Source of the DNA: Candidatus Bipolaricaulota bacterium
Lineage (GTDB): Bacteria; Bipolaricaulota; Bipolaricaulia; RBG-16-55-9; DRXL01
Direction of reading: 5' to 3'
Length of the DNA: 27,870 bases
Assembly (NCBI GenBank): GCA_041641035.1
Contig: JBEPZC010000001.1
Coordinates: 1 to 27,870, forward strand
Part shown: in pieces, positions 5,724-27,870 of the stretch
How the letters are laid out: every line of letters begins with the position of its first letter
Numbering within the stretch: the stretch's first letter is position 1
The notes under the pieces: generated by a model
The model's database searches: none
Told to the model about the DNA's origin: nothing
What the model saw: only the letters and a program-made list of their open reading frames with translations
Made by a program: the position numbers and the translations under genes

Positions 5724-6580
5724 ACGCGTTCAGCCTTCGCGCGCTCTTGCATGATCTGTTCGTACTCCAGAGGATGCTCCTCCATCATGCGCTTCTTCGA
5801 GATCTTCCCCGTGAAGATCGTCATATTGATGGGGAAGACCTCAGGGTTGAGATGGGCGTGATACATGTGCCAGGTGATGAGCGCGAGGATTGCCAGCAAC
5901 GCCTCGCCCGAATGAGCCTGCAGAGCGACGTCAAAGATATACTTGGGGAAATACGCTAATGCTATTCTATGAAACCAGAGCATCAGCCCGGAGAGCACCA
6001 TGACCGCTGTGCCCCACACTAGCGCCCAATACTCGAATTTCTCGCTGTAGCTGTAGCGCCCGAACTTGGGACGCTCTGACGACAGCCCGAGCATAAACTT
6101 CACATTGGCGATAAAGTCCCACAGATCTTTCACTCTGGGGAGCAGCTCGCGCAGTTCGCGACGGCCCTCGCGCGTCAGCAGCCATCCGATATGCCACACA
6201 GTGACGAGCATCAACAGCGACGCTCCCACCCGATGGATGATACGATTGACCTCCAAGCTCCAGATCGTGCGGAAGAGGAACTCCGCCCAGGCCGAATCGT
6301 GAAACTTGATGGGCAGCCCCGTGATCGTCAGCAGGATCACTCCAATAGCCAGCACCAGATGCTGCAGACAGACGTTCAGACTGAACCGCACGAAGTACTC
6401 TTCTTCTTCTTTCTCTTGTGCGACGCGACGTTGCTTTGCCTGCAGTTCTGCTTTCAGCTGCGCCCGAACCAACTCCTTGATGCGTTGCAGCTCAGCGTCA
6501 TCGAGCGGGCGAGCTAGCTCATGTTCGAGCTCGCGTTGTAACTCTCGTACGAGTCGCTCTTCGTTTGCAAAGTCAGCCAT
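5720..6580 (-). CDS. Diheme cytochrome b, FdnI/HydC type (CbcL membrane-domain-like), with N-terminal coiled coil
   Basis: RFSLNVCLQHLVL, IIHRVGA, RYSYSEKFEYWALVWGTAVMVLSG, LQAHSGEA and ITWHMYHAH motifs. AGGAG RBS upstream. Confidence 0.85.
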   Translation of the reverse strand: MADFANEERLVRELQRELEHELARPLDDAELQRIKELVRAQLKAELQAKQRRVAQEKEEEEYFVRFSLNVCLQHLVLAIGVILLTITGLPIKFHDSAWAEFLFRTIWSLEVNRIIHRVGASLLMLVTVWHIGWLLTREGRRELRELLPRVKDLWDFIANVKFMLGLSSERPKFGRYSYSEKFEYWALVWGTAVMVLSGLMLWFHRIALAYFPKYIFDVALQAHSGEALLAILALITWHMYHAHLNPEVFPINMTIFTGKISKKRMMEEHPLEYEQIMQERAKAERV

Positions 6581-7637
6581 GAGAACTCCTCCGGGCGTGG
6601 CGCCATCGTCCGTAGAGGTCCAATACGATATAGAAGATAAAGCCTGCTGTCATTACGATCGTCAGCCAACGGTAGAACTCATAGACCCAGAAGACGATCC
6701 CTGCATCAGGGTCACTGGGGATGATGTGAAATCTCCCGCGGGCGACGTTATGCGAAGCATTGGGGTGGCATTGCCCACAGGTTTGTGCGAGGTTGAGCGG
6801 GTGGATCGGGGAGCGCGGATCTCGACTCGACAGAATCTTATGATACTCATGACAGCTCACACAGTTGGCGCTCCTGAGAATCCCGAACTCGACAGCAATA
6901 CCGTGAAAGCTCTTCTTGAACGCCTCGACCTGTTTGACGGGGACGCCGCGACGCTCCATGATCTTGACGTCGGTATGGCAGCGTGCGCAGGTGTTCGCGA
7001 CATTTTGCGGGTGGAGCGACGAGCGTGGATCATCGGGCGGGAAGAGATCGTGCTCACGATGGCAATCTGAGCAGACAGCAGACTCTACGACACCCTGGCG
7101 CAGGGCCTGCCCGTGCACGCTCTCTAAGTATTCTGTATAGATCTCGATGTGGCAGCTCCCGCAGGTCTTGGGGATATTCGTGCGATAGACAGGGGAGAGC
7201 GGATCGGTGTGAGCGCGGACGGAGTGCACGGTGTGGCAGCTCTTGCAGTCGGGGGCGTTAGGGTCGCCGCGCTCGAAGGCCCGGCCGTGCACGCTCTCTT
7301 TGTATTTCTCTGGACGCTCACTCACCGGCGCCCCCACGACGTTCCCCTGATAGTGACAGTTCAGACAGTGAATCTGTTGGGGTCTTCTCTGATGGGGGAT
7401 GACCGTCACGTCGGTGTGACAGTCTATACAGAGTTTCTCTGTGTGCACCGACGCTTTGAGCTGCTCGTAGTCGACGAAGAGAGATTTAAACTGTCTGGGG
7501 GTGACTTCGACCTTGAAGGTGGGATTGCCGTGACATTCTAATAGGCACCGAGCGTTGGGGTCGCGCTGGCCGTAGCCGGGCCAGCCGGCTACGAGCAGAC
7601 TCCAACTAATGACAAAGAGCACGATGAATCTCTTCAT
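6573..7637 (-). CDS. Nonaheme c-type cytochrome with signal peptide and C-terminal TM anchor (CbcL periplasmic-domain-like)
   Basis: 8 CxxCH plus an N-terminal CLLECH (CX3CH), with repeated SxHG...CxxCH...N..TCxxCH modules. Start moved from 7775 to ATG 7637 (MKRFIVLFV), giving an ATGA overlap with the upstream stop. Confidence 0.88.
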   Translation of the reverse strand: MKRFIVLFVISWSLLVAGWPGYGQRDPNARCLLECHGNPTFKVEVTPRQFKSLFVDYEQLKASVHTEKLCIDCHTDVTVIPHQRRPQQIHCLNCHYQGNVVGAPVSERPEKYKESVHGRAFERGDPNAPDCKSCHTVHSVRAHTDPLSPVYRTNIPKTCGSCHIEIYTEYLESVHGQALRQGVVESAVCSDCHREHDLFPPDDPRSSLHPQNVANTCARCHTDVKIMERRGVPVKQVEAFKKSFHGIAVEFGILRSANCVSCHEYHKILSSRDPRSPIHPLNLAQTCGQCHPNASHNVARGRFHIIPSDPDAGIVFWVYEFYRWLTIVMTAGFIFYIVLDLYGRWRHARRSSHG

Positions 7638-8341
7638 AGCAAGCCCTTCTCTTTGAGACGCTGGTACTCCAGCGGGTGCTCTTCTTGCAGGTGCTTCGCT
7701 GAGATCTTGCCATCCCAGAAGCTCCAATCTATAGGGAACCGCCCTGGACTCAAATGCACTAAATACAGATGCCACAGCGTCAGCACGATGAGAATAAGCG
7801 TCCCTGTGCCACTGTGGACAGCGAGAGCCACGTCAAAGGCCCACTTGGGCAATACCACAAAGAACCAATCGTGACACCAGAGAACGAACCCGCTGGCGAT
7901 CATAATCACGACGAAGAGCGCAAAGGCCCAATACTGAAATTTCTCACGGTAGCTGTAGCGATCCAGCTGAGGTTTTTCAGGGCGCAATCCCAGATCATAG
8001 AGCAACGCGGCACCGTAATCTTTGAAGTCTTGGGTTTTGAAGAGCATCTGCATGAATTCTTCGTGGCCGGTGCGCGAGAACAGAATGTACAGAATGTGAT
8101 AGAGCACCGTAGCTATGAGCACTCCCGCAGCGATGCGATGGAGCGTGCCGCGGGCCTCAAAGCCTCCTGTGAGCGCTATAAGCAAGCGCCCAAAGGTGCT
8201 GTCCCGATAGAGCAGTGCCAAGCCCGTCAAAATCAAGAGCGTGACGCTCACCATAAGCGCAAAGTGCTGCACTCGCACCTGAATATTGATTCTCTCGATG
8301 GTGCGCTCTTCACTGAGTCCTCTGATGTGTTCACTGGGCAT
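7634..8341 (-). CDS. Diheme cytochrome b, FdnI/HydC type (second copy)
   Basis: RVQHFAL, TLHRIAA, RYSYREKFQYWA, LAVHSGTG and TLWHLYLVH; paralog of 5720..6580. Confidence 0.85.
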   Translation of the reverse strand: MPSEHIRGLSEERTIERINIQVRVQHFALMVSVTLLILTGLALLYRDSTFGRLLIALTGGFEARGTLHRIAAGVLIATVLYHILYILFSRTGHEEFMQMLFKTQDFKDYGAALLYDLGLRPEKPQLDRYSYREKFQYWAFALFVVIMIASGFVLWCHDWFFVVLPKWAFDVALAVHSGTGTLILIVLTLWHLYLVHLSPGRFPIDWSFWDGKISAKHLQEEHPLEYQRLKEKGLL

Positions 8342-9128
8342 GACGCCTCCTTAACCATCGAATGATGTCGAGACTGACATGGAGCACGAACAGAGCGGTA
8401 AACACTCCCAGAAAAGCGATATAAAAAATCCGCACAATGTATACCCCAGGTGAGACGCTCAACTTGGCTTCGACGTGGACCTTGCCCTTGAGCAGATTCG
8501 CGCTCACGTGGGGATGGCATTGCCCGCACGTCTGCACGAGATTGTTGGGATGGATCGACGAATGGGGATCGGATGCGGCTAAGATCAGATGGCTCCCGTG
8601 GCAACTGGAGCAATTGGCTGCAATGAGATTGCCGTATTTGACGGAGAGACCATGATAGCTCCCCCAGTACGTTGAATAGCGACGGGTAGCAATGCCGAAA
8701 CGCTCGGAGAGCCCGGAGTTCTCATGGCAGCGTCCGCAGGTCTGCGGGAGATTGCGCACGAAGACCTGGGAGCGTGGGTCGGCTTTCGAGAAGATCGCGT
8801 GAGCCGAATGGCAATCGGTGCAGCGGGCGGCCTCTCCGATCCCTTGAGCGCGGGCTTGACCGTGCACGCTCCTTTGATATTGCTGAACTTGGTCAAGATG
8901 ACAGCCCGCGCACGCCTGAGCCGTCAGCCGGCTGGGCCGCTGCTCATGAGGGATGCCCTGGACGTCGCTATGACAGACGGTGCACGCGAGATCTCGGTGC
9001 ACAGAGCCTTCGAACGCTGCGCGATCGAAAGTCTCGGTGTGACAATCCCAACACTCTGTGGGCTGTCGCGCGACAGCTGGTGCAGAAGCCAGCACGAGCA
9101 GTATCCCAACGAACGTGATCGAGCGCAT
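8331..9128 (-). CDS. Heptaheme c-type cytochrome with signal peptide and C-terminal TM anchor
   Basis: 7 CxxCH; shorter paralog of 6573..7637. Confidence 0.88.
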   Translation of the reverse strand: MRSITFVGILLVLASAPAVARQPTECWDCHTETFDRAAFEGSVHRDLACTVCHSDVQGIPHEQRPSRLTAQACAGCHLDQVQQYQRSVHGQARAQGIGEAARCTDCHSAHAIFSKADPRSQVFVRNLPQTCGRCHENSGLSERFGIATRRYSTYWGSYHGLSVKYGNLIAANCSSCHGSHLILAASDPHSSIHPNNLVQTCGQCHPHVSANLLKGKVHVEAKLSVSPGVYIVRIFYIAFLGVFTALFVLHVSLDIIRWLRRRHAQ

Positions 9129-9171
9129 AAACTCCCCAATTCAGTTGTAGCCGAACGGCGCAACTTGTGCT

Positions 9172-9207
9172 ATGATACAGATCGGGGGAAAAGATGAGAT
9201 ACGTCAT
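9172..9207. promoter_or_regulatory. Tandem Crp/Fnr-like boxes, putative internal promoter
   Basis: ATGATACAGATCGG (9172) and ATGAGATACGTCAT (9194, within AAGATGA-N6-TCATCTT), 22 bp apart, in an 80-bp gap of an otherwise overlapping gene string. Confidence 0.6.
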
Positions 9208-9208
9208 C

Positions 9209-11020
9209 TTAAAAATCCGTATGGCACTTGAGGCAATCTCCCCTTTGGGGGGGCACGTCGCTGGCGTGACACTGAGCGCAGAATTCATGGCCCATCTGGG
9301 GAACGCCTCGCCCGGAACGTAAGAAGTCTAAGTGACTCTCCTGGGTGACGTTCTCATGACAGATCGCGCAGTTTACGCCCAGAGAGATATGCTGTTCATG
9401 AGGGAATCTCACGAGCTTGGAGCGAGAGGGGATCTGCGCTTGATGGCATTGGAAACAGTCTTGTGATGTGAGCTGAGCCATGCGCTCGGCGGTAGGATGA
9501 CATGTGGCACAAGAGAGCTTTTGCACACCGTGCTGAGGCTCGCGATAGCTTGCTTCTTGATGGCACTGGGTGCATTCTAAGCCGCGACGCACCACGTGGG
9601 GTTCGTGCCGGAATGTGCCATCCGATGTCTCAGAAGAGATCGTCACTGCGCTCAGATGGCACGCGGTGCATTTGGTCTGATAAGGAGCTTGCACCCACGG
9701 GGCCGTCAGGGGATCTTCCAAGCCAACTTCTGTGAGGGCTTGTTGGAGATCTTCGTAGGCTTTCCACAGCAGTGCGGAGGCGTAGCCGGGGTTGTGCACC
9801 GCGTGAGCCTTCTCCACAAAGAGAATGTTCTCTTCAGCGCGCTGCACGCGCTGCTGTGCAGACTGTGGGACCGCACCCTCGAACGCAGCGAGGATGGGCT
9901 TCACGTGAGCGAGCAGTTCTTTGGTCTTCTGGAGCCGGTGGGAGAGGGTCGTCTGCCAATCTTGATATATTCTGAAAAACTGCGCGCCATGACAAGACAT
10001 GCAGCTCACGTCGGAGGCGAGCCGACGCCCCTCATGGGAGACGATATGACAGCTTTCGCACCGCACCCCCGCAAGATACATCGCGGCGGACTGAGGCGCG
10101 ACCCCCTTGCCCCCGATCCCTACATAGAGATCGCGCTGGGGGGAGTGTCCGCCCCCAACATGACACGTCTCGCACGACGTCGCGATCACTTCCAGCTCCT
10201 TGGGAATCTTGTGCTGGATCTCCAAATGACAATTGAGACAGTCGACTTTGTGCTCGGTGACGTGCATGCGGTGCAGCAGCTCGACGTCGCTGATCCGCGC
10301 TAGACGGGCAGGGTCGTTATGGCACGTAAAGCAGCGCTCTTGGGGGACGTCACCGTCGCCTTTGACGACGTTATTATGGCAGAGCGTGCACTCCATCCCC
10401 AAGCGCTTCACCTCCGCGTGATCGAACGAGAGCCCCGCTGTAGTGATAAGCTTTTCTGGGACTTCGTGACAGATCGTGCAGCGGGCCGTGCCCTCGTTCA
10501 GTCTCGTGTCTTTGAAGTGACAGAGAAAGCAGGTGCTCTCGGTCACAGCGATGTGCTGCCCTTGAACGATTTGGGAGTGACAGCTTGTGCAGCGCAGCTT
10601 CTTCTCGCGGCGCATCTCTAACAGATGGGGCCGATGGTCGAAGAGCACGTTTTGGAAGACCTCGCGCCCAACTAATAGGCGTTGCTCGTGGCAGCCGGGG
10701 CGCAAGCACGCCTCGTCGGAGATCTCAGCCCAAGGATTAGTCCCATAGGTGCCCGTAAAGTATTTCACGACCATGGAGAGGGCTTCGTATTTCTTCTGAA
10801 GCTCTGCGGTGATCCCCGGCGGGATATGACATTCGACGCAGGGGACGTCATTATGGGTCGAGGTCTTCCACGACTCATAGTAGGGTTTCATAATGTGACA
10901 CGTCCCGCAGAACGCGGGCTGAGAGCTCGTCTGCATCCCTACAAACGCCGCTGCGATCCCCACCGGCACGAAGATCAGCGCGACCTGCAGCGATCTCAAT
11001 CCCCACGTCTTCCATCTCAT
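9209..11020 (-). CDS. 19-heme c-type cytochrome (paralog A) with N-terminal TM anchor and NapC/NirT/NrfH-like domain
   Basis: 18 CxxCH plus CLRPGCH (CX4CH). TSSQPAFCGTCHIMKPYYESWKTSTHNDVPCVECH. Colinear with 3984..5723. Confidence 0.9.
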   Translation of the reverse strand: MRWKTWGLRSLQVALIFVPVGIAAAFVGMQTSSQPAFCGTCHIMKPYYESWKTSTHNDVPCVECHIPPGITAELQKKYEALSMVVKYFTGTYGTNPWAEISDEACLRPGCHEQRLLVGREVFQNVLFDHRPHLLEMRREKKLRCTSCHSQIVQGQHIAVTESTCFLCHFKDTRLNEGTARCTICHEVPEKLITTAGLSFDHAEVKRLGMECTLCHNNVVKGDGDVPQERCFTCHNDPARLARISDVELLHRMHVTEHKVDCLNCHLEIQHKIPKELEVIATSCETCHVGGGHSPQRDLYVGIGGKGVAPQSAAMYLAGVRCESCHIVSHEGRRLASDVSCMSCHGAQFFRIYQDWQTTLSHRLQKTKELLAHVKPILAAFEGAVPQSAQQRVQRAEENILFVEKAHAVHNPGYASALLWKAYEDLQQALTEVGLEDPLTAPWVQAPYQTKCTACHLSAVTISSETSDGTFRHEPHVVRRGLECTQCHQEASYREPQHGVQKLSCATCHPTAERMAQLTSQDCFQCHQAQIPSRSKLVRFPHEQHISLGVNCAICHENVTQESHLDFLRSGRGVPQMGHEFCAQCHASDVPPQRGDCLKCHTDF

Positions 11021-16013: not shown

Positions 16014-16376
16014 ATGGAAGATGAACTTACAGTGCTGCAGGCCCACATGTGCAAGGTGCTTGCGCACCCCAAGCGCCTGCGGATTATCTATGCCCTGCGC
16101 ACGGGCGAACGCAGCGTCGGGGAGCTTGTTCAAGAACTCAAGCTTCCGTATGCCAATCTCTCCCAGCACTTGCGCGTATTGCTGGAGGCCAGACTGGTCG
16201 AGGTACGCCATCATGGACGATATAAATATTATTATCTCTCGATCCCGCAGATCGCTGAAGCGTGCGATCTCGTGCGCCGAGTGTTGCGGGAGCGTCTGAC
16301 ACAACTTGGAAAGTTGGCACAAGCCAACAATAAAAGAGAAAAAGAGAAAGAAAAGAAAGGAGGTGAATCTCGATGA
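16014..16376 (+). CDS. ArsR/SmtB family transcriptional regulator
   Basis: CKVLAHPKRLRIIYAL...SVGELV...ANLSQHLRVLLEARLV winged HTH; Cys13 and Cys84. Confidence 0.92.
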   Translation: MEDELTVLQAHMCKVLAHPKRLRIIYALRTGERSVGELVQELKLPYANLSQHLRVLLEARLVEVRHHGRYKYYYLSIPQIAEACDLVRRVLRERLTQLGKLAQANNKREKEKEKKGGESR

Positions 16377-17521
16377 AGAAGCTCTGGGGCGTTGCCGTAC
16401 TGTTGGTCGGCGTGCTCGCGGGGCTTGGCGCTCTGAGCATCTCTTTTGTTGGGAGTCCCGTGCCGATGCACCACTTTGAGACGGCTTTAGCACAGGCGCA
16501 TCCGTGGGCAACGGCTCAGCAGGACCCAGCTCAGACCTTCCCCACAAGCCTGCACGCCACCCGCGAGGGCAAGCGCACCTGGTACGGGAAGGAGAACGGC
16601 GGTTTTGAGACGCTCACGAACGTTCCTATCGAGAAGCTGGGATGCCTCGGCTGTCACCCTGGCACCTACGCTGACGGCTCCAAGGTCGATCCCGCTACGT
16701 ATCAGCCCGGGTGCCGAGACTGTCACGCGCAGCCCGGTGACAAAGTCAAGCAAGAGACGTGTCTCAAGTGCCACGCGCGCCAGGGGCTGGAGATGAAGCT
16801 CTACTCCGACGTCCACCGCGAGAAGAATCTGGAGTGCTCGAGCTGTCATACCAGCCGAGAGATGCACGGCGACGGCAAGGTGTATAAGTCGTGGCTAGAG
16901 CCGGGCGCCATGGATGCCTCTTGTGATAAGTGCCACACGACCATTGCGACCACCGTCTCCCACGCGATACACGCCAAGACAGTCGACTGCGCCAGCTGCC
17001 ACTCGCAGTCGGTCGTCGCCTGCTACAACTGTCACCTCGACAGCGCTGTAGCTGTCCCAGGAACCAAGCGCTTCTACGGGCCTGTGAAGGACTTCACATT
17101 CCTGCTCAACCGCCAAGGGACGGGCAAGGTCTACTCCGCCACGATCCAGCCGCTCGTTCACGGCGGCAAGTCCTTCGTGGCCATCGCGCCGTTCCGCGGA
17201 CACACCATCTCGAAGAAGGGGCGCGGCTGCGCAGAGTGCCACAACAACGCCATCATCCAAGAGTACGCCAAGACCGGCAAGATCACGGTCTCCAAGTGGG
17301 ACGGCAGCAAGCTCGTCTTCACCACGGGCGTCATCCCCGTGCCACCCGATTGGAAGACGGCGCTCTTGTTCGACTTCGTCGACTACACAGGAGACATCAC
17401 CAAGCCGGAGACCGATCCGACCAAGTGGGTCTTCCTCAAGTCCGGTGCAGACCTGATGCAGATGCTCTACGCTGACCCCTTGACCAAGGAGCAGATCGAG
17501 AAGCTCAAGCAAGCCCGCTAA
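16373..17521 (+). CDS. Secreted octaheme c-type cytochrome of unassigned family
   Basis: Signal peptide, 8 CxxCH, strong AGGAGG RBS, ATGA overlap with arsR. Confidence 0.88.
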   Translation: MKKLWGVAVLLVGVLAGLGALSISFVGSPVPMHHFETALAQAHPWATAQQDPAQTFPTSLHATREGKRTWYGKENGGFETLTNVPIEKLGCLGCHPGTYADGSKVDPATYQPGCRDCHAQPGDKVKQETCLKCHARQGLEMKLYSDVHREKNLECSSCHTSREMHGDGKVYKSWLEPGAMDASCDKCHTTIATTVSHAIHAKTVDCASCHSQSVVACYNCHLDSAVAVPGTKRFYGPVKDFTFLLNRQGTGKVYSATIQPLVHGGKSFVAIAPFRGHTISKKGRGCAECHNNAIIQEYAKTGKITVSKWDGSKLVFTTGVIPVPPDWKTALLFDFVDYTGDITKPETDPTKWVFLKSGADLMQMLYADPLTKEQIEKLKQAR

Positions 17522-17682: not shown

Positions 17683-18282
17683 ATGGTGGCACGGCTGGTC
17701 GTCGCGGTCTTGATCGCAGCGGGGGCCATTGTGCTGGGGGTTATTAGCTATGCGTTCTTCACCGGCCGCAGCGATCTGAGCAAACTCACGCTCACTGAGG
17801 GTCGAGGGCTCTTCGTGGACGACCCCAAGGCCCTCATCGCAGAGACCGCCGCGAGCTTAGGGCATCTCGCCCCGGATTTCTCGTTGGAAGACCTCACCGG
17901 CCGGAGGGTGAGCCTGAGCGACCTGCGGGGCAAACCCGTCTTACTCAATCTCTGGGCGACGTGGTGCCCCCCCTGCCGCCAAGAGATCCCCGAACTCCAA
18001 GAATTCCATGAACGCTACGGGGAGAAGATCGCGCTCGTGGGCGTCAATTGGGGCGAAGACGCGAACACTGTGAGAGGTTTTTTGGCTCAGTTTGGCGTCA
18101 GCTATCTCAACTTACTTGACCCTCGCGGCACAACGTTTGTTCTCTATGGGCTGACGGGCATCCCCGAGAGCTTCTTCATCGACCCTGAGGGCTACATTCG
18201 TGGGGCGTGGATTGGGCCGATCACAGCAGAAAGTATCTCCAAGGGCTTTGCGCGGTTGGGGCTTCTCAAAGAAAGTGAGTGA
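17683..18282 (+). CDS. resA: ResA/TlpA thiol-disulfide oxidoreductase (cytochrome c maturation)
   Basis: N-terminal TM; APDFSL...GKPVLLNLWATWCPPCRQE...GIPESFFIDPEG. Confidence 0.9.
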   Translation: MVARLVVAVLIAAGAIVLGVISYAFFTGRSDLSKLTLTEGRGLFVDDPKALIAETAASLGHLAPDFSLEDLTGRRVSLSDLRGKPVLLNLWATWCPPCRQEIPELQEFHERYGEKIALVGVNWGEDANTVRGFLAQFGVSYLNLLDPRGTTFVLYGLTGIPESFFIDPEGYIRGAWIGPITAESISKGFARLGLLKESE

Positions 18283-18288
18283 TTCTCT

Positions 18289-20061
18289 ATGACCTGTGCG
18301 GCGTGCGGAACAGTCAATACCCCTGATAGTCGCTTTTGCAAGCACTGCGGCGTAGCACTCCAAGTGCTCTGTAGTCGCTGTGCCACGGCGAACACGCCCG
18401 ATAGCAGATTTTGTAAGGCGTGTGGGGCTGCTTTGACACAAGCGGTTCCAGCTCCACCGCCCCGCGCCACAGAGCTCGCGGTTGACGGTGCACTGCGGGG
18501 CAAGGTCGCGGAGGTCGTCAAGGTCTTAGGCGGGCTCAACTGTGGGCGCTGCGGCTATCGCACGTGCGCTGAAAATGCTCTGGCGATTGTGCGCGGGGAG
18601 GCCCCCCCACACTCCTGCGTCCAGGGCGGCGAAGAAGCTGCTCGTCAAATTCGCGCGATCTTGGGCCATCCTGAACGACCCAGCTTCGGGGCGCTGTTGT
18701 GGGAGCAGCTCACGTCGATTAAGCTTGCCATCGTGCTCATCGTCGTGATCGTCTTGCTCTCTATCATCGGCACGATCATCCCCCAAGGCAAAGATCTGCT
18801 CTTTTATATAGCTCGTTATGGAGAGGCCGGGACGAATATCATCAAAGCGCTCAAGCTCGACAGCCTCTATCACTCGTGGTACTTTGTGAGTTTGCTTGTG
18901 CTGTTAGCTCTCAATACCGGGGCGTGCGCGACCAAGCGCTTTCGCGTCTCGTGGGAGCTGGTGCGCAAGCCCGTCGAGCCCCGCAGCGCCGACGAGATCG
19001 CACAACTCCCAACCCAAGCCAAGCTCGCTCCTCATCTTTTTGAAAAGCTCGAAGACGCTCTCAAGCGCCGGCGCTACCGCGTGCGCCGCGAAGGCACGCA
19101 GCTCATTGCGTATAAGAATCTGTGGGGCCGGCTAGGCATCGATATCTTGCACGGAAGCTTGATCATCATTCTCATCGGGGGCATCGTCGGAGGGCTTCTG
19201 GGGTTTGAGAGTTTTCAGATCGCGCACAAGGGCGAGACGTTCACGATCCCCCAGGGCAACTTCCAAGTCCGCGTGGACGACCTAAGAGTCGTCAACTACG
19301 AGGGCTCCAGTCAAGTGAAAGACTGGTACACCACGCTCACGGTCATTGATGGCGGCCGCGAAGTGCTCACCAAGACCATCGAAGTGAACGAGCCGTTGAC
19401 GTATAAGGGGATCTCTCTCTATCAAGCATCGTTTGGCAGCGACTGGCTGGGCGGGGCCGAGCTGACGTTTCGCATCGAGCGCGTGAAGGAGGGAAGAGCT
19501 GAGCCGGTCAGCGAGATCACGACGAAGGTCGGCGCGACGTTCCCTCTTGAAGAGGGGCGCACGGCAAAAGTCGTCGCGTTCTATCCCGATTTTATCGTGA
19601 CAGAGCAAGGGCCGGCCAATCGCTCGCAAGCCCTCAACAACCCCGCAGCGTTCTTAGAAGTCTACAACGGCGACCGGCGAGAGTTCACAACGTGGACGTT
19701 TGCCCAGTTCCCCGAATTCCAGCACGACTTCGCCAGAGAGACCCCCTATCGGTTCTATCTTGTGGGAATGAAAGCCCCGGAGTTTACGGGGCTGCAGATC
19801 GCGCGCAACCCCGGAATTCCCATTATCTACGCTGGGTTTATTCTGCTGGTCTTGGGGCTAGCGTTGAACTTCTATCTGCCGCCAAGGCGCCTGTGGGCCG
19901 CCGTGAAAGAGAGCGCTCTGTATGTCGGAGGACTAGGGCGTGAGCCACGCGAGTTCGAGCCGGACTTCGAAGAGATCATCGCCGACCTATCCCAGGTATC
20001 CGCTCCTACAGAAGACTCAAAAGAAAAGACATTACTCAAGGAGGTTAGCAAGCATGGATAG
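18289..20061 (+). CDS. resB: ResB/CcsB cytochrome c biogenesis protein with N-terminal double zinc ribbon and Fe-S domain fusion
   Basis: ResB core: LTSIKLAIVLI...IIGTIIPQG, YHSWYF...CATKRF, ILHGSLII, VNEPLTYKGISLYQASF, LQIARNPGIPIIYAG. Residues 1-130 carry four CxxC plus CGRCGYRTC-x16-C. Confidence 0.9.
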   Translation: MTCAACGTVNTPDSRFCKHCGVALQVLCSRCATANTPDSRFCKACGAALTQAVPAPPPRATELAVDGALRGKVAEVVKVLGGLNCGRCGYRTCAENALAIVRGEAPPHSCVQGGEEAARQIRAILGHPERPSFGALLWEQLTSIKLAIVLIVVIVLLSIIGTIIPQGKDLLFYIARYGEAGTNIIKALKLDSLYHSWYFVSLLVLLALNTGACATKRFRVSWELVRKPVEPRSADEIAQLPTQAKLAPHLFEKLEDALKRRRYRVRREGTQLIAYKNLWGRLGIDILHGSLIIILIGGIVGGLLGFESFQIAHKGETFTIPQGNFQVRVDDLRVVNYEGSSQVKDWYTTLTVIDGGREVLTKTIEVNEPLTYKGISLYQASFGSDWLGGAELTFRIERVKEGRAEPVSEITTKVGATFPLEEGRTAKVVAFYPDFIVTEQGPANRSQALNNPAAFLEVYNGDRREFTTWTFAQFPEFQHDFARETPYRFYLVGMKAPEFTGLQIARNPGIPIIYAGFILLVLGLALNFYLPPRRLWAAVKESALYVGGLGREPREFEPDFEEIIADLSQVSAPTEDSKEKTLLKEVSKHG

Positions 20062-20935
20062 CGCGTTCTTCTTCTATCTGAGTGCCGTGGGGTACTTTCT
20101 GAGCTTTGTCTTCTATCTGCTGCATCTTATCGGGAGCCCTACAGATCAGAAATCTGGGCTGGGCATCGTGGCAGCGCCCCAGCCGTGGGTGCTCAAGCAG
20201 ACGACCTGGGGCAAAGTCGCCACAGGGACAACTCTTGTCACCGTGCTCATCAGCACGGTCGGGATGGTGCTGCGCGTTCTCGAGATGCATCGGGTGTCGG
20301 ACTTCTGGATGCTGCCGGTGACCAATACGTATGAGACGCTAGCGTTCTTCTCCTGGGCGATCCCCCTGGTCTATCTGCTCTTTGAGTGGCGCTACAAAAT
20401 CAGAGTGGTCGGGGCTTTTGCGACAGGGTTGGCGTTTCTGTTCATCGCGTTAGCGTCATCGCCGCTTTTGTCGAGCGAGGTCCGTCCGCTGGTGCCGGCG
20501 CTGCAGAGCTATTGGCTCGTCTTGCACGTCTTCTTTACGCTGGGCGGCGAGGCGTTCTTCGCTGTGGCGTTTGGCGCAGGTGCGCTCTTCTTATGGCTAC
20601 AGAAGCGTGGGGGGAATCTCCAGACGCTCAAGATGCTCGATAACCTGGGCTACAAAGCGATTGCCTTAGGGTTTCCGCTCTTCACGCTAGGCGGGCTGGT
20701 CTTTGGGGCGATCTGGGCACAGCATGCGTGGGGACGCTACTGGGGCTGGGACCCCAAAGAGACGTGGATGCTCATTACTTGGTTCTTCTATGCGCTCTAC
20801 TTGCACGTGCGGGTGAGGTGGGGCTGGCGCGACGCGAAAACGGCTTGGCTGGCGGTCGGCGGCTTCGCCGTCGCTATGTTTACGTGGTGGGGTGTGAATT
20901 ATCTGTTAGCGGGCTTGCATAGTTACGCAGGCTAA
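20054..20935 (+). CDS. ccsA: ResC/CcsA cytochrome c synthase (System II)
   Basis: WWD domain GAIWAQHAWGRYWGWDPKETW and LQSYWLVLHV. Start moved from 19940 to ATG 20054 (MDSAFFF). Confidence 0.95.
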   Translation: MDSAFFFYLSAVGYFLSFVFYLLHLIGSPTDQKSGLGIVAAPQPWVLKQTTWGKVATGTTLVTVLISTVGMVLRVLEMHRVSDFWMLPVTNTYETLAFFSWAIPLVYLLFEWRYKIRVVGAFATGLAFLFIALASSPLLSSEVRPLVPALQSYWLVLHVFFTLGGEAFFAVAFGAGALFLWLQKRGGNLQTLKMLDNLGYKAIALGFPLFTLGGLVFGAIWAQHAWGRYWGWDPKETWMLITWFFYALYLHVRVRWGWRDAKTAWLAVGGFAVAMFTWWGVNYLLAGLHSYAG

Positions 20936-20953
20936 CACAAGAAGGAGGTGATC

Positions 20954-21517
20954 ATGATGCTCAAGCGTATGATAGCCATTGCGCTCTTTGTGGCAGTCCC
21001 CTTAGGGGTGACTGTGATAGTGATGGCGTTGGCCCAGCAGCCTCCGGCTATTCCCAAGGGGCACGTCTCGATCAAGACGGGAGCCCCCGTCGAACTCTGC
21101 TTCCGGTGCCATAAGGCTCCACCGCCCTTGCCCACAGAGAAGACGTCGTTCTGCGCGACGTGTCATATCAACATTCACATAGAAGAGACGGAATTTGTCG
21201 ACGTGACGCGGGTGGGGAATCGCTCCAAGCACCCTGTAGAGTTCAACTGGGCAGCAGCGGATTGCTCATCGTGCCACACCAAGCCGCATAAGACGAAACC
21301 CGCGCCGCACCCGGTTACGGCGCAGCAGCCGTTGAGCGCCTTCTGTCAGCCGTGTCACTTGAACCCTGCAGACCCAGAGAAAGCCGTAGGCGGACAGGAG
21401 AAAGCTGGAGAGTTCTGCGCCGGGTGTCACCATATCGGGCTCAATCCGAAGCACGTGAAGGCCCCCGCTGGGGTCAAAGTTAACTTCTGCTTCGGTTGTC
21501 ATAAGACGACGCCGTGA
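20954..21517 (+). CDS. Small hexaheme c-type cytochrome (paralog 1)
   Basis: Signal peptide, 6 CxxCH; AGGAGG RBS favours ATG 20954 or 20957. Confidence 0.88.
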   Translation: MMLKRMIAIALFVAVPLGVTVIVMALAQQPPAIPKGHVSIKTGAPVELCFRCHKAPPPLPTEKTSFCATCHINIHIEETEFVDVTRVGNRSKHPVEFNWAAADCSSCHTKPHKTKPAPHPVTAQQPLSAFCQPCHLNPADPEKAVGGQEKAGEFCAGCHHIGLNPKHVKAPAGVKVNFCFGCHKTTP

Positions 21518-21656: not shown

Positions 21657-22781
21657 ATGAGAGCTCGGATTTTCTCTGTCAGCGTACTGGTACTCAGCGT
21701 CGTAGCTGTGGGGCTTGTGGCATCTTCGCTAGGTCCTGCTGAAGAATGGCTCAAGAGCAAACACGCCAACCGCGAGACGGCTCTTGCTGAAGCGACGGTT
21801 GAGTCCAGGGGGCCATTGGCCGGACATTGTGGGCGTTGTCATAGCGAGCAGGGTTTTTTGGCGTGGTTGCCTCAGCTGATAGCAGGCAACCCTGGCTTGA
21901 TTATTGACCCCAGCACCGGCAAGCCCGCCGAAGTCCCCTATCTGGCCCAGCTTGGTTTGACCCAAGAGAAAGTCCAGCCCATCACCTGTACGGTCTGCCA
22001 TGGGGAAAGATTCGCCCTGCGCATTGAGAACAGCACGCCCCTGTTGCCATCGGGCTTTGCAGCCGTGGGCGTGGGCAAGGGTGCGCTATGCATGACCTGC
22101 CACAACACGCGCAACGGTCGCATCCAGTGGGATTCCTCTGATCCCAAACGCTACACCGGCCCGCACGAAGCCGCCCAAGCCGACGTCATCATGGGGAAGA
22201 ACGTCTACTTCTTCAATGACACAGCGGAGCTGGTCTCTCCCCATGCCGCGTTCACGGGCGATTCGTGTGTGACCTGCCATAAGACCTTGGGCAAGGAAGG
22301 GCATACGTTCGAGCCATCAGAGACGTCATGCGCCAGCTGCCACGGCGCAGCACTGAAGATCGAGTTTGTCACCGAGCCAACGAAGCACCTGCTGGGGCAG
22401 TTGAGGGTCGCTATCGAGAAGAAGGTGCTTGCTGCGCGCGACAGGATCAAGGTCGTGGCCGCATGGGATCCCAAGACGGGCAAGATCACACCTGACACGC
22501 CCATCGACGCCACTCAGATCAAAAATGTTGACTTCCTGACCATTTATGGCCAGCTGGCGTTCCAGTTCACTATGGCTGACGGCAGCGAGGTCTACAGCCA
22601 GATGGGAGGCGTCAAAGACGCCCCAGGCGATCAAGGCAAGCCTGTTTTCGCAACTGCAGACCCGGTCGTGCGAGCAGCTCATAACTATATGCTCGTTAAG
22701 TACGACGGGAGCAACGGCGTGCACAACCCCAAGTTCGTCCGCGATGTGCTGATCACAACGATTCGAGCGATGTCTCAATAG
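21657..22781 (+). CDS. Pentaheme c-type cytochrome (five CxxCH, no CxxCK), helical C-terminus ending DGSNGVHN
   Basis: Signal/TM; CGRCH, CTVCH, CMTCH, CVTCH, CASCH; AAGGAGG RBS. Confidence 0.85.
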   Translation: MRARIFSVSVLVLSVVAVGLVASSLGPAEEWLKSKHANRETALAEATVESRGPLAGHCGRCHSEQGFLAWLPQLIAGNPGLIIDPSTGKPAEVPYLAQLGLTQEKVQPITCTVCHGERFALRIENSTPLLPSGFAAVGVGKGALCMTCHNTRNGRIQWDSSDPKRYTGPHEAAQADVIMGKNVYFFNDTAELVSPHAAFTGDSCVTCHKTLGKEGHTFEPSETSCASCHGAALKIEFVTEPTKHLLGQLRVAIEKKVLAARDRIKVVAAWDPKTGKITPDTPIDATQIKNVDFLTIYGQLAFQFTMADGSEVYSQMGGVKDAPGDQGKPVFATADPVVRAAHNYMLVKYDGSNGVHNPKFVRDVLITTIRAMSQ

Positions 22782-22801: not shown

Positions 22802-23344
22802 ATGCTCAAGCGATGGAGTCTTCTCGCGGCGCTCATTGTAGTCATGGGAGCTGTGGGTGCGATGGTCTTCGCTGTGGCCCAACAGCCGCCACCGCTGCCC
22901 CAGGGGCATATCTCCGTGCCTCCAGGCACCTCGGCAGCCACGTGCTTTGAGTGTCACCAGAGCCCGCCCCCGCTCAAGACCGAGCAAGTCGGCTTCTGTA
23001 AGACCTGTCACATCACGACGCATATCGTCACCAAGCCTGGCTTCACCGTCGAGCGGCCGGGGCCGCGGCCTAAGCACGTCATCGCCTTCGAGTGGACTGC
23101 GGCTGAATGCAACAGCTGCCACACGCCGCACAAGACGAAGGTCGCTAAACACCCCGTAGGGGAGAAGCAGTCCAACAGCAGCTTCTGTCTCCCCTGCCAC
23201 GAGACGCCCCAAGTTAAGGGCATCACCGGTCAAGAGAACGCCGGCGAGTTCTGTGCTGGGTGTCACAACCTTGGTTTGTCTCCAACTCACGTGCAGACTC
23301 CACCTGATGCGAAAGCGGTCTTCTGTTTCGGCTGCCATAAGTAA
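22802..23344 (+). CDS. Small hexaheme c-type cytochrome (paralog 2)
   Basis: Signal peptide, 6 CxxCH, colinear with 20954..21517 (shared AGEFCAGCH and FCFGCHK). Confidence 0.88.
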   Translation: MLKRWSLLAALIVVMGAVGAMVFAVAQQPPPLPQGHISVPPGTSAATCFECHQSPPPLKTEQVGFCKTCHITTHIVTKPGFTVERPGPRPKHVIAFEWTAAECNSCHTPHKTKVAKHPVGEKQSNSSFCLPCHETPQVKGITGQENAGEFCAGCHNLGLSPTHVQTPPDAKAVFCFGCHK

Positions 23345-23425: not shown

Positions 23426-24202
23426 ATGACAGCGACTGTCGAGACAGAGAATGTCCTCGTGCGCATGCACCAAGACCTGCAGCGCGCTCTGCAGAAGCCC
23501 GTCACTCGTCGCAGCTGGGCTATGGCGGTAGACACCCGCAAGTGCATCGCGTGCTATGGATGCGTCATAGCCTGTATCGCTGAGAACGTGCTGCCGCCAG
23601 GAGTGACATATCGCACCGTGCTCGACATCGAGCTGGGCAAATACCCAAACGTCGAGCGCATTCTCAAGCCCATGAACTGTCAGCAGTGCGACAATGCCCC
23701 CTGCGTCCAAGCCGCCAATAACGTGGCTCCAGGGAGCATGGAGAAGCGCCCCGATGGGGTCGTCGCCGTAGATTACGAACGCGCCACCAAAGAAGCGTTT
23801 GAAGCAGCACAACGAGCGTGCCCCTACAAGCGCGCTGTCTATTTCGATGACGGACGCTTCTACACTGACGGCACACCTGCTCGCCAAGCCTACGAGATCC
23901 GGCCAAGCTTCGAGTATGGCAAGGCCTGGAGGCGCACAGCCGGAAGCCCTCCAGTCAACACGCTGCGCAAGTGCCACTTCTGCTTGCACAGGATAGAGAA
24001 CGGCGAATTACCGGCGTGTGTGACGACCTGCATCGGCGAAGCCATGTATTTTGGCGATCTCAGCGACCCCACTAGTCTCATTGCCCAGCTTCTTAAAGAG
24101 AATCGCGATAAAGTGATGCGGGTCCACGAGAGCAAGGGCACCCAGCCAAGGGTCTATTATCTGACGGACACGCCCGTGCTGTGCAAGGCCCAGCATCCAT
24201 AG
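23426..24202 (+). CDS. TtrB/NrfC/PsrB-family Fe-S subunit with only three predicted [4Fe-4S] clusters
   Basis: CIACYGCVIAC, CQQCDNAPC, ACPY and CHFC...PACVTTC (12 Cys in the motifs). Start moved to ATG 23426 after AAGGAGG. Confidence 0.9.
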   Translation: MTATVETENVLVRMHQDLQRALQKPVTRRSWAMAVDTRKCIACYGCVIACIAENVLPPGVTYRTVLDIELGKYPNVERILKPMNCQQCDNAPCVQAANNVAPGSMEKRPDGVVAVDYERATKEAFEAAQRACPYKRAVYFDDGRFYTDGTPARQAYEIRPSFEYGKAWRRTAGSPPVNTLRKCHFCLHRIENGELPACVTTCIGEAMYFGDLSDPTSLIAQLLKENRDKVMRVHESKGTQPRVYYLTDTPVLCKAQHP

Positions 24203-24214
24203 GAGGTGGAGCCT

Positions 24215-27200
24215 ATGAGCAAGACTCAGATCACACGACGCAGGTTCTTGAAGACGACGGCGTTGCTGGGCGGGACGGCGTTCTTTGTCACTCGCTTTGG
24301 TTGGCCTATCGAGCTGTTTGGACAGTCGGCGCAATATGATCTATCTAAGCCCGAGAATATTCTCTACACGGTCTGTCAGCAGTGCAACACTCAATGTGGG
24401 CTGAAAGTCAAGCTCTATGACGGCTTGGCAGCAAAGCTTGAGGGCAACCCCTATAGCCCATGGAACCTCCAGCCCAGTGTGCCGTATAAGACATCGCCCA
24501 AGGAAGTGGCCAAGCTCGATGGGCGGCTCTGCCCCAAGGGCCAAGCCGGCATTCAAACTGTTTATGACCCCTATAGGATCGTGAAGGTGCTCAAGCGCGC
24601 AGGCAAGCGCGGCGAGAACAAATGGGTAGCAATCCCCTTCGATCAAGCTATCAGCGAGATCGTCAACGGTGGGGATCTCTTTGGCGAAGGGCCCGTCCCC
24701 GGCTTGAAAGAGATCTGGGCGCTGCGTGACCCCAAGATCGCCAAAGCCATGGCCGACGACGTCAAGGCGATCTGGGCTAAGAAGACCACCGACGAGAAAC
24801 GCTCTGCAGTAGCAGCGTTCAAAGAGAAGTACGCGAGCTATCTGGACACGCTGATCGACCCCGATCACCCCGATCTTGGGCCCAAGAACAATCAGCTTGC
24901 GTTCTTGTGGGGGCGGCTCAAGGGCGGACGCGCTGAGCTCATTAAGCGTTTCACGGTCGAGAGCTTTGGTTCGGTCAACGCGCATGGGCACACGACCGTC
25001 TGTCAGGGCTCGCTCTACTTCGCCAGCAAAGCCATGAGCGAGCAGTATATCGGGGGCAAATGGACGGGTGGCAAGAAGTTCTATTGGCAAGCTGATCAGA
25101 ATAATTCTGAATTTATTATCTTCGTTGGGGCATCACCCTTTGAGGGCAACTATGGTCCAACGAATCGCGCGCCGGGGCTGACGCGCGGGCTGGTGTCGGG
25201 ACGATTGAAGTTCGCCGTCGTTGACCCGCGCTTCAGCAAGACGGCCTCGAAAGCGTGGAAATGGCTGCCTATCAAGCCCGGCACCGAGGCGGCTTTGGCG
25301 TTAGCGATGATCCGCTGGATCATCGAGAACAAACGCTATGACGCGCGCTACTTGAGCAACGCCAACAAAGCGGCAGCGACAGCCGACAAAGAGCCGACCT
25401 GGACGAATGCCTGCTGGCTGGTCACGATCAAAGATGGCCGACCCACGACGTTCCTGCGAGCAAAAGAGATCGGCTTGACCGACGAGGACCGCTTCGTCGT
25501 GCTCAAGGACGGTAAACCCATCGCGTTCGACCCCTACGACACGGCTACCCCTGTCGAGGGCGACCTGCTCGTCGACACCGAGCTGGGAGGGATCAAGGTC
25601 AAAAGCGGGCTGCAGGTCCTATGGGAGTCGGCATCTTCCAAGACGCTCGAAGAGTGGAGCGCTATCTGCGACATCCCCGTCCGGGATATCATCGAGCTGG
25701 CCAAAGAATTTACGAGCCACGGTAAGAAAGCCGCTGTAGATATCCATCGCGGCGTATCGCAGCATACCAACGGCTTCTATAATGTCTTCGCGTGGTTCGC
25801 TCTCAACCTGCTCATCGGCAACAACGACTGGAAAGGCGGGATGATCCAAGCTGCGACATTCGATCACACCGGTGGGAAGGAGGGCCAGCCATTTAACCTC
25901 GCCAAGCTCAACCCCGGAAAGACCACAGCGTTTGGGGTGAGCATCATTCGCCATGAGACCAAGTACGAAGAGACGACGCTCTTCGATGGGAAATACCCAG
26001 CCAAGCGCCCGTGGTATCCGCTCTCCAGCGATATCTATCAAGAGCAGATCCCGTCCATGGGCGACGCCTATCCCTATCCCGTCAAAGCCCTGTTCATCTA
26101 CATGGGCTCGCCGGTCTATGCCTTGCCCGCCGGACATACGAATATCGAGATCCTCGCCGACCCCAAGAAGATCCCGCTCATCGTTGCCTGCGACATCACT
26201 ATCGGCGAGACGTCCATGTACGCCGACTATATCTTCCCTGATCTGTCGTATCTGGAGCGATGGGAGTTTGCGGGGTCGCATCCCAGCATCGCGCAGAAAG
26301 TCCAGCCGATCCGCCAGCCGGTCATCGCGCCCTTGACCGAAACTGTCAAAGTCTTTGGGCAAGAGATGCCGCTCTCCCTGGAGGCGATGCTCTTAGGGAT
26401 TGCCGAGAAGCTGGGGCTGCCGGGCTTCGGCAAGGACGGCTTCGGCGAAGGCCAAGACTTCACTCATCCCGACCAACTCTATCTGCGCATGGTGGCCAAC
26501 GTCGCCGCCGGAGATAAACCGGGCAACGAAGTCCCCGATGCTGATGATGCTGAAGTCGAGCTGTTTGTCAAAGCCCGACGACACCTGCCCAAGACGGTCT
26601 TCGATCCGGAGCGCTGGCAACAGATCGTCGGCGAGAAGTGGTGGCGCAAGGTCGTCTACGTTCTCAACAGAGGCGGACGCTTCGACGACTTCGAGCGTGG
26701 CTACGACGGCGACTACGCGCGCAATAAGTACGGCACGCTCATCAATCTCTACCAAGAGAAGACAGCGCTCATAAAGAACAGTATGACGGGCAAGCCCTTG
26801 GCAGGCTACCCAGTCTATCTGCCGATAGCCGACTCGGTAGGCCGACCGCTCGAGGACGAAAAGCAAGGCTTCGATCTCCATCTCATCACCCACAGGGAGA
26901 TCGTCCAGACGAAGTCCCGAACGGTTGGGAACTATTGGCTGCTCGCGGTCATGCCGGAGAACTCTATCTTGGTGAACTCCCGTGATGCCCAGCGCCTCCA
27001 GCTTCAGGACGGTGATCTAGTGAAGATCACCTCGGCGAGCAACCCCGAGGGCGTCTGGGATTTGCGCAACGGTGTCAAAGTTCCCATGATCGGCCGAGTG
27101 AAGGTCACGGAGACGATCCGCCCAGGAGTGATCAGCTTCGCCCTGGGGTATGGCCATTGGGCCTACGGTGCCACCGACGTCGTCATTGACGGGGAGGTGA

Positions 27201-27367
27201 TCACCGGCGACGAGCGTCGGCGTGCGACGGGCTTAGGCGGTGTCGCCGGCGTCCATGCGAACGCTGCCATGCGCGTCGACCCCTACCTCAAGAACACGTG
27301 CTTAGTCGACGTCTACGGCGGTAGTGCGGTCTTCTATGACACGAAAGTCAAATTGATCAAGGTGTAA
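24215..27367 (+). CDS. ttrA: Mo/W-bisPGD oxidoreductase catalytic subunit, tetrathionate reductase TtrA family
   Basis: Tat signal TRRRFLK; FS0 motif CQQCNTQC...CPKG; TtrA-type [17 protein letters not shown] and [10 protein letters not shown] segments; GHTTVCQG (likely Mo-ligating Cys). Start ATG 24215 after AGGAGG. The substrate is not established. Confidence 0.8.
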
Positions 27368-27374
27368 AAGCTTT

Positions 27375-27415
27375 CACTCCCTCTCCCGTCCGTCCCCAAG
27401 ACGGGAGAGGGAGTG
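27375..27415. repeat. Perfect 16-bp inverted repeat after ttrA (terminator or REP-like)
   Basis: CACTCCCTCTCCCGTC-N9-GACGGGAGAGGGAGTG. Confidence 0.75.
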
Positions 27416-27445
27416 CCCGCAACCCCCAATGAGAAAGGCGGTACT

Positions 27446-27870
27446 ATGCAATTTGCTCTCGTCAGCATACTGCTCACATGGATGACGCTCAGTGCTCCTA
27501 CCCAAGACTGCACTGTGACCGTCCAGCCGGGACAGTCCATCCAACAGACCATCAACGCCGTGGCTGAAGGTGCTCTCGTGTGTCTTACAGCGGGCACGTT
27601 CACTGAGAATATAGCGATTACAAAGAGCCTAACGCTCCGTGGCGCAGGAAGAACCCAAACCATTCTCCAGGGGGCGGTGCGAATCGAGCGCGACCACGAG
27701 ATCACGGTGACCCTATCAGAATTAGCTGTGAGCAGATCGCTTTTTGGCGCTGCTGTGCGCATCGGCGGGAGGGCGAACGCCTCTCTCAATGGTGTTGCTC
27801 TCACCGAGAGCTTCATGGGCTTGCTCGCTGCAGGTTCTGCTCGAGTCACGCTCAACAGCGTCCAAATACT
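27446..27870 (+). CDS. Secreted parallel beta-helix (pectin lyase-like) protein, truncated at the window edge
   Basis: Missing from the track. My translation: MQFALVSILLTWMTLSAPTQDCTVTVQPGQSIQQTINAVAEGALVCLTAGTFTENIAITKSLTLRGAG, open to the window end. GAAAGG RBS. Confidence 0.8.
   Translation, partial: MQFALVSILLTWMTLSAPTQDCTVTVQPGQSIQQTINAVAEGALVCLTAGTFTENIAITKSLTLRGAGRTQTILQGAVRIERDHEITVTLSELAVSRSLFGAAVRIGGRANASLNGVALTESFMGLLAAGSARVTLNSVQI

Follow-up and report, generated by a model that had tools for sequence, protein, structure and literature searches.

The window analysed here is an entire contig of 27,870 nucleotides (27.9 kb) from a metagenome-assembled genome (MAG) of Candidatus Bipolaricaulota (1.28 Mb, 86.6% complete), and it carries, near the end of its plus strand, a gene pair resembling ttrB and ttrA of tetrathionate reductases. 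From about 17.7 kb onwards this strand encodes the System II cytochrome c maturation proteins (ResA-like, ResB and CcsB; 17683..20935), a trio of c-type cytochromes with six, five and six haems (the 6-5-6 trio), the ttr-like pair, and the start of a NosD gene. The first hexahaem cytochrome (20948..21517) is a paralog of the second (22802..23344), a protein of 180 aa with an N-terminal signal or anchor, and between them lies a pentahaem cytochrome of 374 aa (21657..22781). The ttrB-like gene (23426..24202) encodes P0001, an iron-sulphur (Fe-S) subunit of 258 aa with 12 cysteines for the clusters FS1 to FS3 and no signal peptide of its own. It directly precedes, with a gap of 3 nt, the ttrA-like gene (24206..27367), which encodes a catalytic subunit of 1053 aa of the molybdenum bis-pyranopterin guanine dinucleotide (Mo-bisPGD) type; we refer to the two subunits as B and A. 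The start codon chosen for P0001, ATG at 23426, is preceded by a strong Shine-Dalgarno sequence (AAGGAGG) and was preferred to a GTG at 23357, which adds 23 residues that contain no twin-arginine motif. Subunit A has the Fe4S4, Molybdopterin and Molydop_binding domains, a twin-arginine translocation (Tat) signal (TRRRFLK, 24233-24253), the Cys motif of FS0 (24374-24541), a Gly-Arg motif (WGRLKGGR, 24905-24931), and the segment with the Mo-ligand Cys (24983-25012). The Tat signal implies that the enzyme is exported, and the first-pass annotation of the window had rightly placed it in the periplasm.

By its fold, P0001 is one of the four-cluster proteins of the complex iron-sulphur molybdoenzymes (CISM): it matches Fer4_11 (PF13247) with 72.6 bits in Pfam, its best Foldseek matches are ArrB (6cz7_B, E 1e-18) and PsrB (2vpw_B, E 4e-17), and it lies next to a Mo-bisPGD subunit with FS0. 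Matches to TALE repeats in a PDB search with residues 31-140 were set aside as chance. In the translation, Cys groups I (C40/43/46/50) and IV (C183/186/198/202) are intact. Group II, CQQCDNAPCVQAA (23678..23716), keeps C85/88/93, which are ligands of FS3, and has Ala97 in place of the fourth Cys; group III, ATKEAFEAAQRACPY (23783..23827), is degenerate, has lost its first three Cys, and keeps C132, the fourth FS3 ligand. When P0001 is aligned to Thermus PsrB with HMMER, CVQAAN faces CVPVCP and ATKEAFEAAQRACPY faces CIACGACIAACPY, with a 2-residue insertion, and the same four Cys are missing from P0001. The ligand set of FS3 (C85, C88, C93, C132) is thus complete. In NarH, PsrB and FdnH the four missing positions bind FS4, the cluster closest to the membrane anchor; the ligand positions are reportedly those set out by Bertero in 2003, Jormakka in 2002 and 2008, and Rothery in 2008. 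The Cys pattern of P0001 compared with PsrB and ArrB supports the loss of precisely this set, and independent agreement comes from BthL (PDB 4v4c_B), the small (beta) subunit of pyrogallol-phloroglucinol transhydroxylase and a solved three-cluster protein, in which the alignment to P0001 shows these four Cys to be missing as well (CVAKGN and EKAKGKKELLDTCPY). The first-pass annotation, which had read the missing residues as the FS4 ligands with groups I and IV untouched, was therefore correct on both counts. The AlphaFold2 (AF2) model has a predicted local distance difference test (pLDDT) score of 92.5; both segments that formerly held FS4 ligands are helical, with a predicted helix at 122-131, and the C-terminal tail contains a short helix. 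P0001 has really lost its last Fe-S cluster and, as described below, its membrane anchor.

The loss is widespread. A search of a 5.8-billion-protein database returned the same FS4-less pattern in all 120 best homologs (52-83% identity), which come from Armatimonadota, Rokubacteria, Tectomicrobia, Casimicrobiaceae, MAGs of Deltaproteobacteria and others, and altogether in about 150 homologs from many phyla; four-cluster TtrB-like relatives appear at 45-56% identity. Copies 87-93% identical to P0001 are present in four genomes of the same genus, and its cluster at 90% identity contains BAL59995.1 of Candidatus Acetothermum autotrophicum. In a maximum-likelihood tree of 170 non-redundant sequences, from which the columns of the FS4 region and the C-terminal tail were omitted, the FS4-less sequences form a single clade of 89 rows with a support of 100 in the Shimodaira-Hasegawa-like approximate likelihood ratio test (SH-aLRT). 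One loss of FS4 accounts for this distribution, and the loss is thus a trait of the family. The clade adjoins proteins that retain FS4 (FS4+) and whose genes are followed by a gene for an NrfD-type protein, as in the order ttrB-ttrC-ttrA. An alignment of 22 diverse members of the clade showed that the remaining 12 Cys and a His in the tail are invariant, and just six positions combine conservation within the clade with a different state in the sister group (M81, A96, A97, G103, F125 and H257). In a genome of the same class, an FS4-less B whose tail ends in KECQRWH is followed by an 877-aa molybdopterin subunit resembling PhsA/Psr (L172, G035:C16, 3235-6620), which indicates that the module of three clusters and a tail was reused with another catalytic subunit.

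We retrieved 160 loci, called their open reading frames, and used 35 genes situated between B and A to make an NrfD profile; Pfam assigned two of these genes to PF03916. The tally was restricted to non-redundant loci whose sequence continues for at least 1.5 kb past the end of B; the FS4-less loci came from the metagenome scan, and the control set from the matches listed in the scan of genome contigs, which were mostly FS4+ relatives. A lies directly downstream of B in all 39 FS4-less loci and in 7 of the 48 loci of the FS4+ sister group, while a gene for NrfD is adjacent in 1 of the former and 40 of the latter. Since the trait changed only once on the tree, a Fisher test on these counts is a description and nothing else. 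The sole FS4-less locus with an adjacent NrfD (L006) has an octahaem cytochrome, a four-cluster Fe-S protein of its own and NrfD in an NrfBCD-like module (6597-9415) directly upstream of B-A, and this module is plausibly a feeder from quinol to cytochromes. The PF03916 profile, to which control genomes responded, found no NrfD in the window's own MAG (G000), within the limits of its completeness of 86.6%. A TtrC protein of the sister clade used as query gave no match there either, with a positive control that did not work, and PF14589 gave none but is uninformative, as no control genome responded to it. An orphan anchor elsewhere in the MAG was accordingly discarded as a candidate, and the MAG has only one Fer4_11 protein. 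Among 40 relatives, NrfD was also not found in G005 (91% complete), G015 (93%) and G035 (93%), all of which have an FS4-less B. The suggestion of the first-pass annotation that FS4 vanished together with TtrC thus holds for the operon, the MAG and the clade, and the checks it had called for on the absence of ttrC among homologs and on an orphan anchor came out in its favour. One MAG paper has reported ttrAB lacking ttrC and attributed this to the end of a contig.

Two further observations bear on the link between anchor and cluster. First, two genomes of the window's genus (G004 and G013; loci L167/L168 at G004:C19 and G013:C21, versus L173/L174) carry two systems each: an FS4-less B-A behind the 6-5-6 haem trio, as in the window, and a separate, canonical FS4+ B-NrfD-A operon. 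These are functionally distinct paralogs, and the window's MAG shows only the FS4-less system. Second, a sister group from Geobacteraceae and Desulfobulbaceae (L011 2039-6552, L019, L048, L050 and L017) has four clusters, no NrfD, a PpcA-like trihaem cytochrome c7 gene just upstream, and a C-terminal extension of its own (…KLEVLY). This group is a second, independent route to an enzyme that has no anchor, and it shows that the loss of NrfD need not entail that of FS4.

The clade also differs from its relatives at the C-terminus. The FS4+ proteins stop just past a conserved VYYL strand and have no tail, whereas the FS4-less proteins run some 10-20 residues further and end in His. The tail is CxxCH in 83 FS4-less sequences, CxxxH in 26 (including CKAQH in the window), and His only in 34; it is missing in 8, which are fragments or distant sequences. 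Not one of the 107 FS4+ relatives has a terminal CxxCH. On the tree CxxCH is the basal and commonest state, His-only tails make up a single subclade (SH-aLRT 98; 15 tree rows, corresponding to 34 sequences in the census), and CxxxH tails a small subclade that includes the window. The tail of P0001, DTPVLCKAQHP with His257 (24167..24199), is a degenerate form of the terminal CxxCH, and P0003, 76% identical to it, retains CKSCH. An invariant His with dispensable Cys at the spacing of CxxCH points to an axial ligand of a haem with optional thioether bonds, and not to a metal cluster. A new cluster bound by the tail Cys was considered and rejected: the His alone is invariant, and the tails of one subclade contain no Cys. 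A candidate sixth ligand of the haem, predicted from the alignment, is Met81: this position is Met in 87% of the clade (FMP[TA][NQ]C), four residues before the first FS3 ligand. The corresponding segment of the window, RILKPMNC (23657..23680), just before group II, has the K81 and M83 of its subclade. A Tat-like N-terminal extension of B itself is present in 81 of 107 CxxCH members and in none of the window subclade, whose B must therefore travel on the signal of TtrA. The idea of a haem tail is feasible given that C-terminal CxxCH haem-tags are matured by Ccm (PMC6962350) and that archaea have natural cytochromes c predicted to carry Tat signals (PMC4429474). We infer that a haem bound to the tail would be the electron port of the clade, with less certainty for the window's own protein.

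We think it likely that these proteins form a clade of three-cluster enzymes that lack an anchor, bear a C-terminal tail of a haem-binding type, and exchange electrons with c-type cytochromes and not with quinol, with arsenate as the best guess for the substrate. The clade would have arisen from an ancestor of the type ttrB-ttrC-ttrA by three linked changes: 1) loss of the NrfD-type anchor that oxidises quinol; 2) loss of FS4, the cluster next to it; and 3) acquisition of a short tail at the C-terminus, with CxxCH at its end. The enzyme would then not oxidise quinol itself but exchange electrons with periplasmic c-type cytochromes, which in the window would be the upstream 6-5-6 trio; the trio in turn would receive electrons from cytochrome b, Rieske and NapC/NrfH-like modules elsewhere on the contig. 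In most members a haem would be attached to the tail after export, with the His as one axial ligand and the clade's Met possibly as the other, and would serve as a port into FS3, FS2, FS1, FS0 and Mo. In the window subclade, with CKAQH and K81, the haem may be held by one thioether or non-covalently, or FS3 may be contacted directly. The core of the first-pass annotation, an enzyme with no anchor and wired to cytochromes, survives in this account.

Several points weigh against this account. The window protein has no second Cys in its tail and thus no c-type CxxCH, and its residue 81 is Lys. Haem binding is deduced from sequence alone and the presence of the cofactor is a prediction. We know of no natural precedent for haem attached by the first Cys only, and of no characterised Tat-exported Fe-S protein that carries its haem covalently. 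The topology of the fold has the C-terminus leaving from the FS1/FS2 domain, so that the haem need not occupy the old site of FS4. The losses of FS4 and NrfD rest on one evolutionary event, and their counts are not independent; the incompleteness of the MAG limits the negative for NrfD; and the assignment of the substrate depends on one motif and the literature on relatives.

Some of these points suit the model of the first-pass annotation, in which there is no additional cofactor, a surface-exposed FS3 accepts electrons directly from a multihaem protein, and the tail is structural or a docking peptide. The CKAQH tail and the Lys at position 81 of the window would need no further explanation, nor would the His-only subclade, and the hexahaem genes lie directly upstream; moreover, the formate dehydrogenase FdhAB runs on three clusters with no haem in its beta subunit. 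We nevertheless judge this model unlikely. C-x-x-C-H stands at the extreme C-terminus of 83 sequences and of none of the 107 FS4+ relatives and appears to be ancestral on the tree, an invariant His with dispensable Cys is the pattern of a haem ligand and not of a docking peptide or a metal cluster, and a gene with at least three CxxCH motifs lies within 6 kb in only 8 of the 39 FS4-less loci. A direct route into FS3 could still operate in the window subclade, and what the model overlooked is the clade-specific CxxCH/His tail and Met81. Its multihaem partner is likewise a feature of this lineage, where the trio lies upstream, and not of the clade at large.

It is improbable that the A-B pair instead docks on an anchor encoded elsewhere or of another type, such as Ni_hydr_CYTB or a NapC/NrfH-like protein, and so forms a quinol-oxidising complex after all. 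Such an arrangement could draw on the two cytochrome b561-type genes, the Rieske/cytochrome b complex and the NapC/NirT-like multihaem proteins of the window, on a locus (L001) where Ni_hydr_CYTB and heptahaem genes lie directly upstream of B, on the NrfD module of L006, and on the gaps in the MAG. However, no match to the NrfD family turned up in G000, G005, G015 or G035, the neighbouring families are not conserved across the clade, the cluster that would face the anchor is gone, and the NrfD of L006 has its own four-cluster partner. Finally, a decaying ttrB copy or an artefact of assembly or annotation, for which only the missing Cys and the low NCBIfam scores of both subunits could speak, can be dismissed: the reading frame is unbroken and its translation is coupled to that of ttrA, the model is of high confidence, copies with 87-93% identity occur in the four genomes of the genus, and conservation of the pattern and of the other 12 Cys in homologs from many phyla bears out the earlier argument that the loss is not random decay.

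We put forward a bolder version of the preferred account only tentatively, as it could well prove wrong. A widespread clade of Tat-exported CISM beta subunits may have replaced FS4 and NrfD by a single c-type haem on a C-terminal 'natural haem-tag' of about 10 residues, with His/Met ligation beside FS3. The clade would then act as an adaptor of Ttr/Arr-like catalytic subunits (and one Psr-like) into networks of cytochromes c, including Mtr-type conduits, and the Bipolaricaulota form would be derived, on its way to non-covalent haem.

A neighbouring family or a third gene conserved across the FS4-less loci was looked for and not found; around B-A we observed Rrf2 and sigma-54 regulators, MoaA, proteins resembling phosphate porins, porins, TatA and various cytochromes. 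The 6-5-6 haem trio precedes the FS4-less B-A in G004 and G013 too, and in the window the hexahaem cytochrome next to B (22802..23344) is the probable direct redox partner of the enzyme. The constant unit is therefore B-A with its tail, and the partner changes by lineage, being the trio in this genus of Bipolaricaulota. Elsewhere, two octahaem cytochromes, a decahaem cytochrome of 319 aa and an MtrB/PioB porin (PF11854, E 9e-121) directly precede a CxxCH-tailed FS4-less B and A (L137 102-12051; also L138 and L139). B-A is followed by two DOMON proteins in an Armatimonadota locus with a His-only tail (L003 14277-15598) and by EB_dh in L001 (17160-18545), which has a CxxCH tail and also Rieske/cytochrome b genes; by analogy, these neighbours recall the haem b gamma subunits of type II DMSO reductases. 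In one metagenome lineage, a gene of the TatA/B/E family lies directly upstream of a CxxCH-tailed FS4-less B (L091 270-497).

The name Ttr, used in the first-pass annotation, is doubtful for this enzyme. Against the NCBIfam equivalog models, A scores 517.6 bits for TtrA (cut-off 1750) and B 127.5 bits for TtrB (cut-off 416), and A has a Gly-Arg motif. Its identity is 48-69% to the A subunits of FS4-less and FS4+ loci alike and only about 34% to proteobacterial TtrA of the Azospirillum/Roseomonas type. G239-R240 of its WGR aligns with G164-R165 (RGR165) of Shewanella ArrA, and the His before the Mo-Cys, the Lys and the Tyr of the Arr site align as well. The Gly-Arg motif is conserved in the family, while sequences of the proteobacterial TtrA type have a gap and other residues there. 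According to a study of 2026, the Gly-Arg pair marks arsenic-metabolising enzymes, including Ttr-like arsenate reductases, as opposed to true Ttr (PMC12949373), and A has both the pair and the Arr-like residues expected of such reductases. Outer-membrane genes resembling phosphate-selective porins O/P lie beside B-A in several phyla (L007 3755-4777, L118 9390-10694, L126 13997-15289 and L041 10928-12094); they and an ArsR gene on the contig weakly fit a substrate of the arsenate type. The substrate would thus be an oxyanion, for which arsenate is our best guess from these motifs, with tetrathionate and selenate as remaining candidates.

Comparison with characterised systems shows which of these traits are familiar. 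Salmonella and Shewanella TtrBCA give the closest named profiles and share the order of B before A, the Cys ligand of Mo and the Tat signal on A, although the full order B-NrfD-A is found in the sister clade and not in the window. The canonical ttrB-ttrC-ttrA operon has an NrfD-type TtrC anchor with nine transmembrane segments, and true Ttr has no Gly-Arg pair (PMC12949373). The window enzyme, unlike these, has no TtrC, three clusters and not four, a Tat signal on A alone where the canonical enzyme has Tat leaders on both subunits, scores far below the equivalog cut-offs, and a site with the Gly-Arg pair. FdhAB of Desulfovibrio vulgaris and D. gigas is likewise a soluble, Tat-exported alpha-beta Mo/W-bisPGD enzyme with no membrane subunit; it exchanges electrons with periplasmic c-type cytochromes, it has the same fold (Foldseek E 1e-11), and the beta subunit of the D. 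vulgaris enzyme carries three [4Fe-4S] clusters (PMC11134731). P0001 has the same three-cluster character: group II has lost its fourth Cys and group III its first three, and 12 Cys are kept. FdhB is nevertheless on another branch of the family (phmmer E about 1e-13), its cluster was lost independently, and the enzyme has no C-terminal CxxCH/His tail, a selenocysteine ligand, and formate as substrate. BthL shares the four lost Cys, but it is cytoplasmic, has no known electron-transfer partner, carries an additional C-terminal beta-barrel domain, lacks a haem motif, and has a catalytic partner subunit that is Ser-ligated. FdhB and BthL match P0001 at E 1e-12 to 1e-14, and four-cluster TtrB-like proteins are closer, which speaks against common descent of the three-cluster forms and makes the loss of FS4 convergent. 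The bare loss of FS4 is thus a convergent repeat of a known solution, and the 'undescribed CISM subtype' of the first-pass annotation was too strong a term; for the three-cluster TtrB-like clade, or for a terminal CxxCH on a CISM beta subunit, we found no description in the searchable literature.

Other systems resemble the enzyme in further respects. The Ttr-like arsenate reductases of Anaeromyxobacter sp. PSR-1, Geobacter sp. OR-1 and Pyrobaculum aerophilum are probable members of the same MopB family as A, which has the Gly-Arg motif described for such reductases; the family has been named 'TtrA/SrdA/alternative arsenate reductase' (PMC10100899). A and a homolog from Geobacteraceae (L011) share 58% identity; isolates of Geomonas and Geobacter contain near relatives of this homolog (about 80% identity), and the link to the PSR-1 and OR-1 enzymes is indirect, through such homologs only. 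The Geobacteraceae-type B, unlike that of the window, keeps FS4 and has no tail of the clade's kind. The extracellular DMSO reductase DmsEFAB of Shewanella and ArrAB plus CymA are also A-B pairs with no NrfD or DmsC anchor that are fed by multihaem cytochromes, and the arrangement of L137-L139 resembles DmsEFAB, while the window has no MtrB-type porin. As far as we know, the B subunits of DmsEFAB and ArrAB retain all four clusters and lack a haem motif. The type II DMSO-reductase enzymes EbdABC, SerABC and DdhABC are Tat-exported, have no anchor, and have a haem that follows the Fe-S chain as the final relay, but this haem is on a separate gamma subunit, the beta subunit retains four clusters (three [4Fe-4S] and one [3Fe-4S]), and Asp is the ligand in the catalytic subunit.

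If the preferred account is true, many annotations of 'tetrathionate reductase' in MAGs of Armatimonadota, Rokubacteria, Gemmatimonadota, Tectomicrobia, Bipolaricaulota and others do not denote quinol:tetrathionate oxidoreductases but soluble enzymes coupled to cytochromes, which may be arsenate reductases. Such enzymes would have different bioenergetics, as NrfD-linked charge separation would not occur, and they might connect to conduits for extracellular electron transfer. The status of FS4 together with the tail would then be a sequence marker to separate anchored from cytochrome-wired forms in metabolic reconstructions. A Tat-exported Fe-S protein with covalent haem would present the logic of cofactor maturation with a new case, and the haem tail could guide, as a natural template, the engineering of electron ports on molybdoenzymes.

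The rest of the window is rich in redox genes. Its minus strand encodes the Rieske/cytochrome b complex, the cytochrome b561-type proteins and the large NapC/NirT-like multihaem proteins mentioned above. The gene for the ArsR-family regulator overlaps the start of an octahaem cytochrome gene (16014-17521). Among the maturation genes, ResB (18289-20061) carries at its N-terminus a double zinc ribbon and an RnfB-type Fe-S domain (Pfam DZR, FeS, ResB), a fusion that is unusual among the haem-handling proteins of System II. Downstream of ttrA, the contig ends in the 5' part of the gene for a NosD/beta-helix protein (27413..27868), which is complete in a metagenome locus 87% identical to that of the window (L085), where the NosD/right-handed beta-helix gene (4323-6134) encodes 603 aa.

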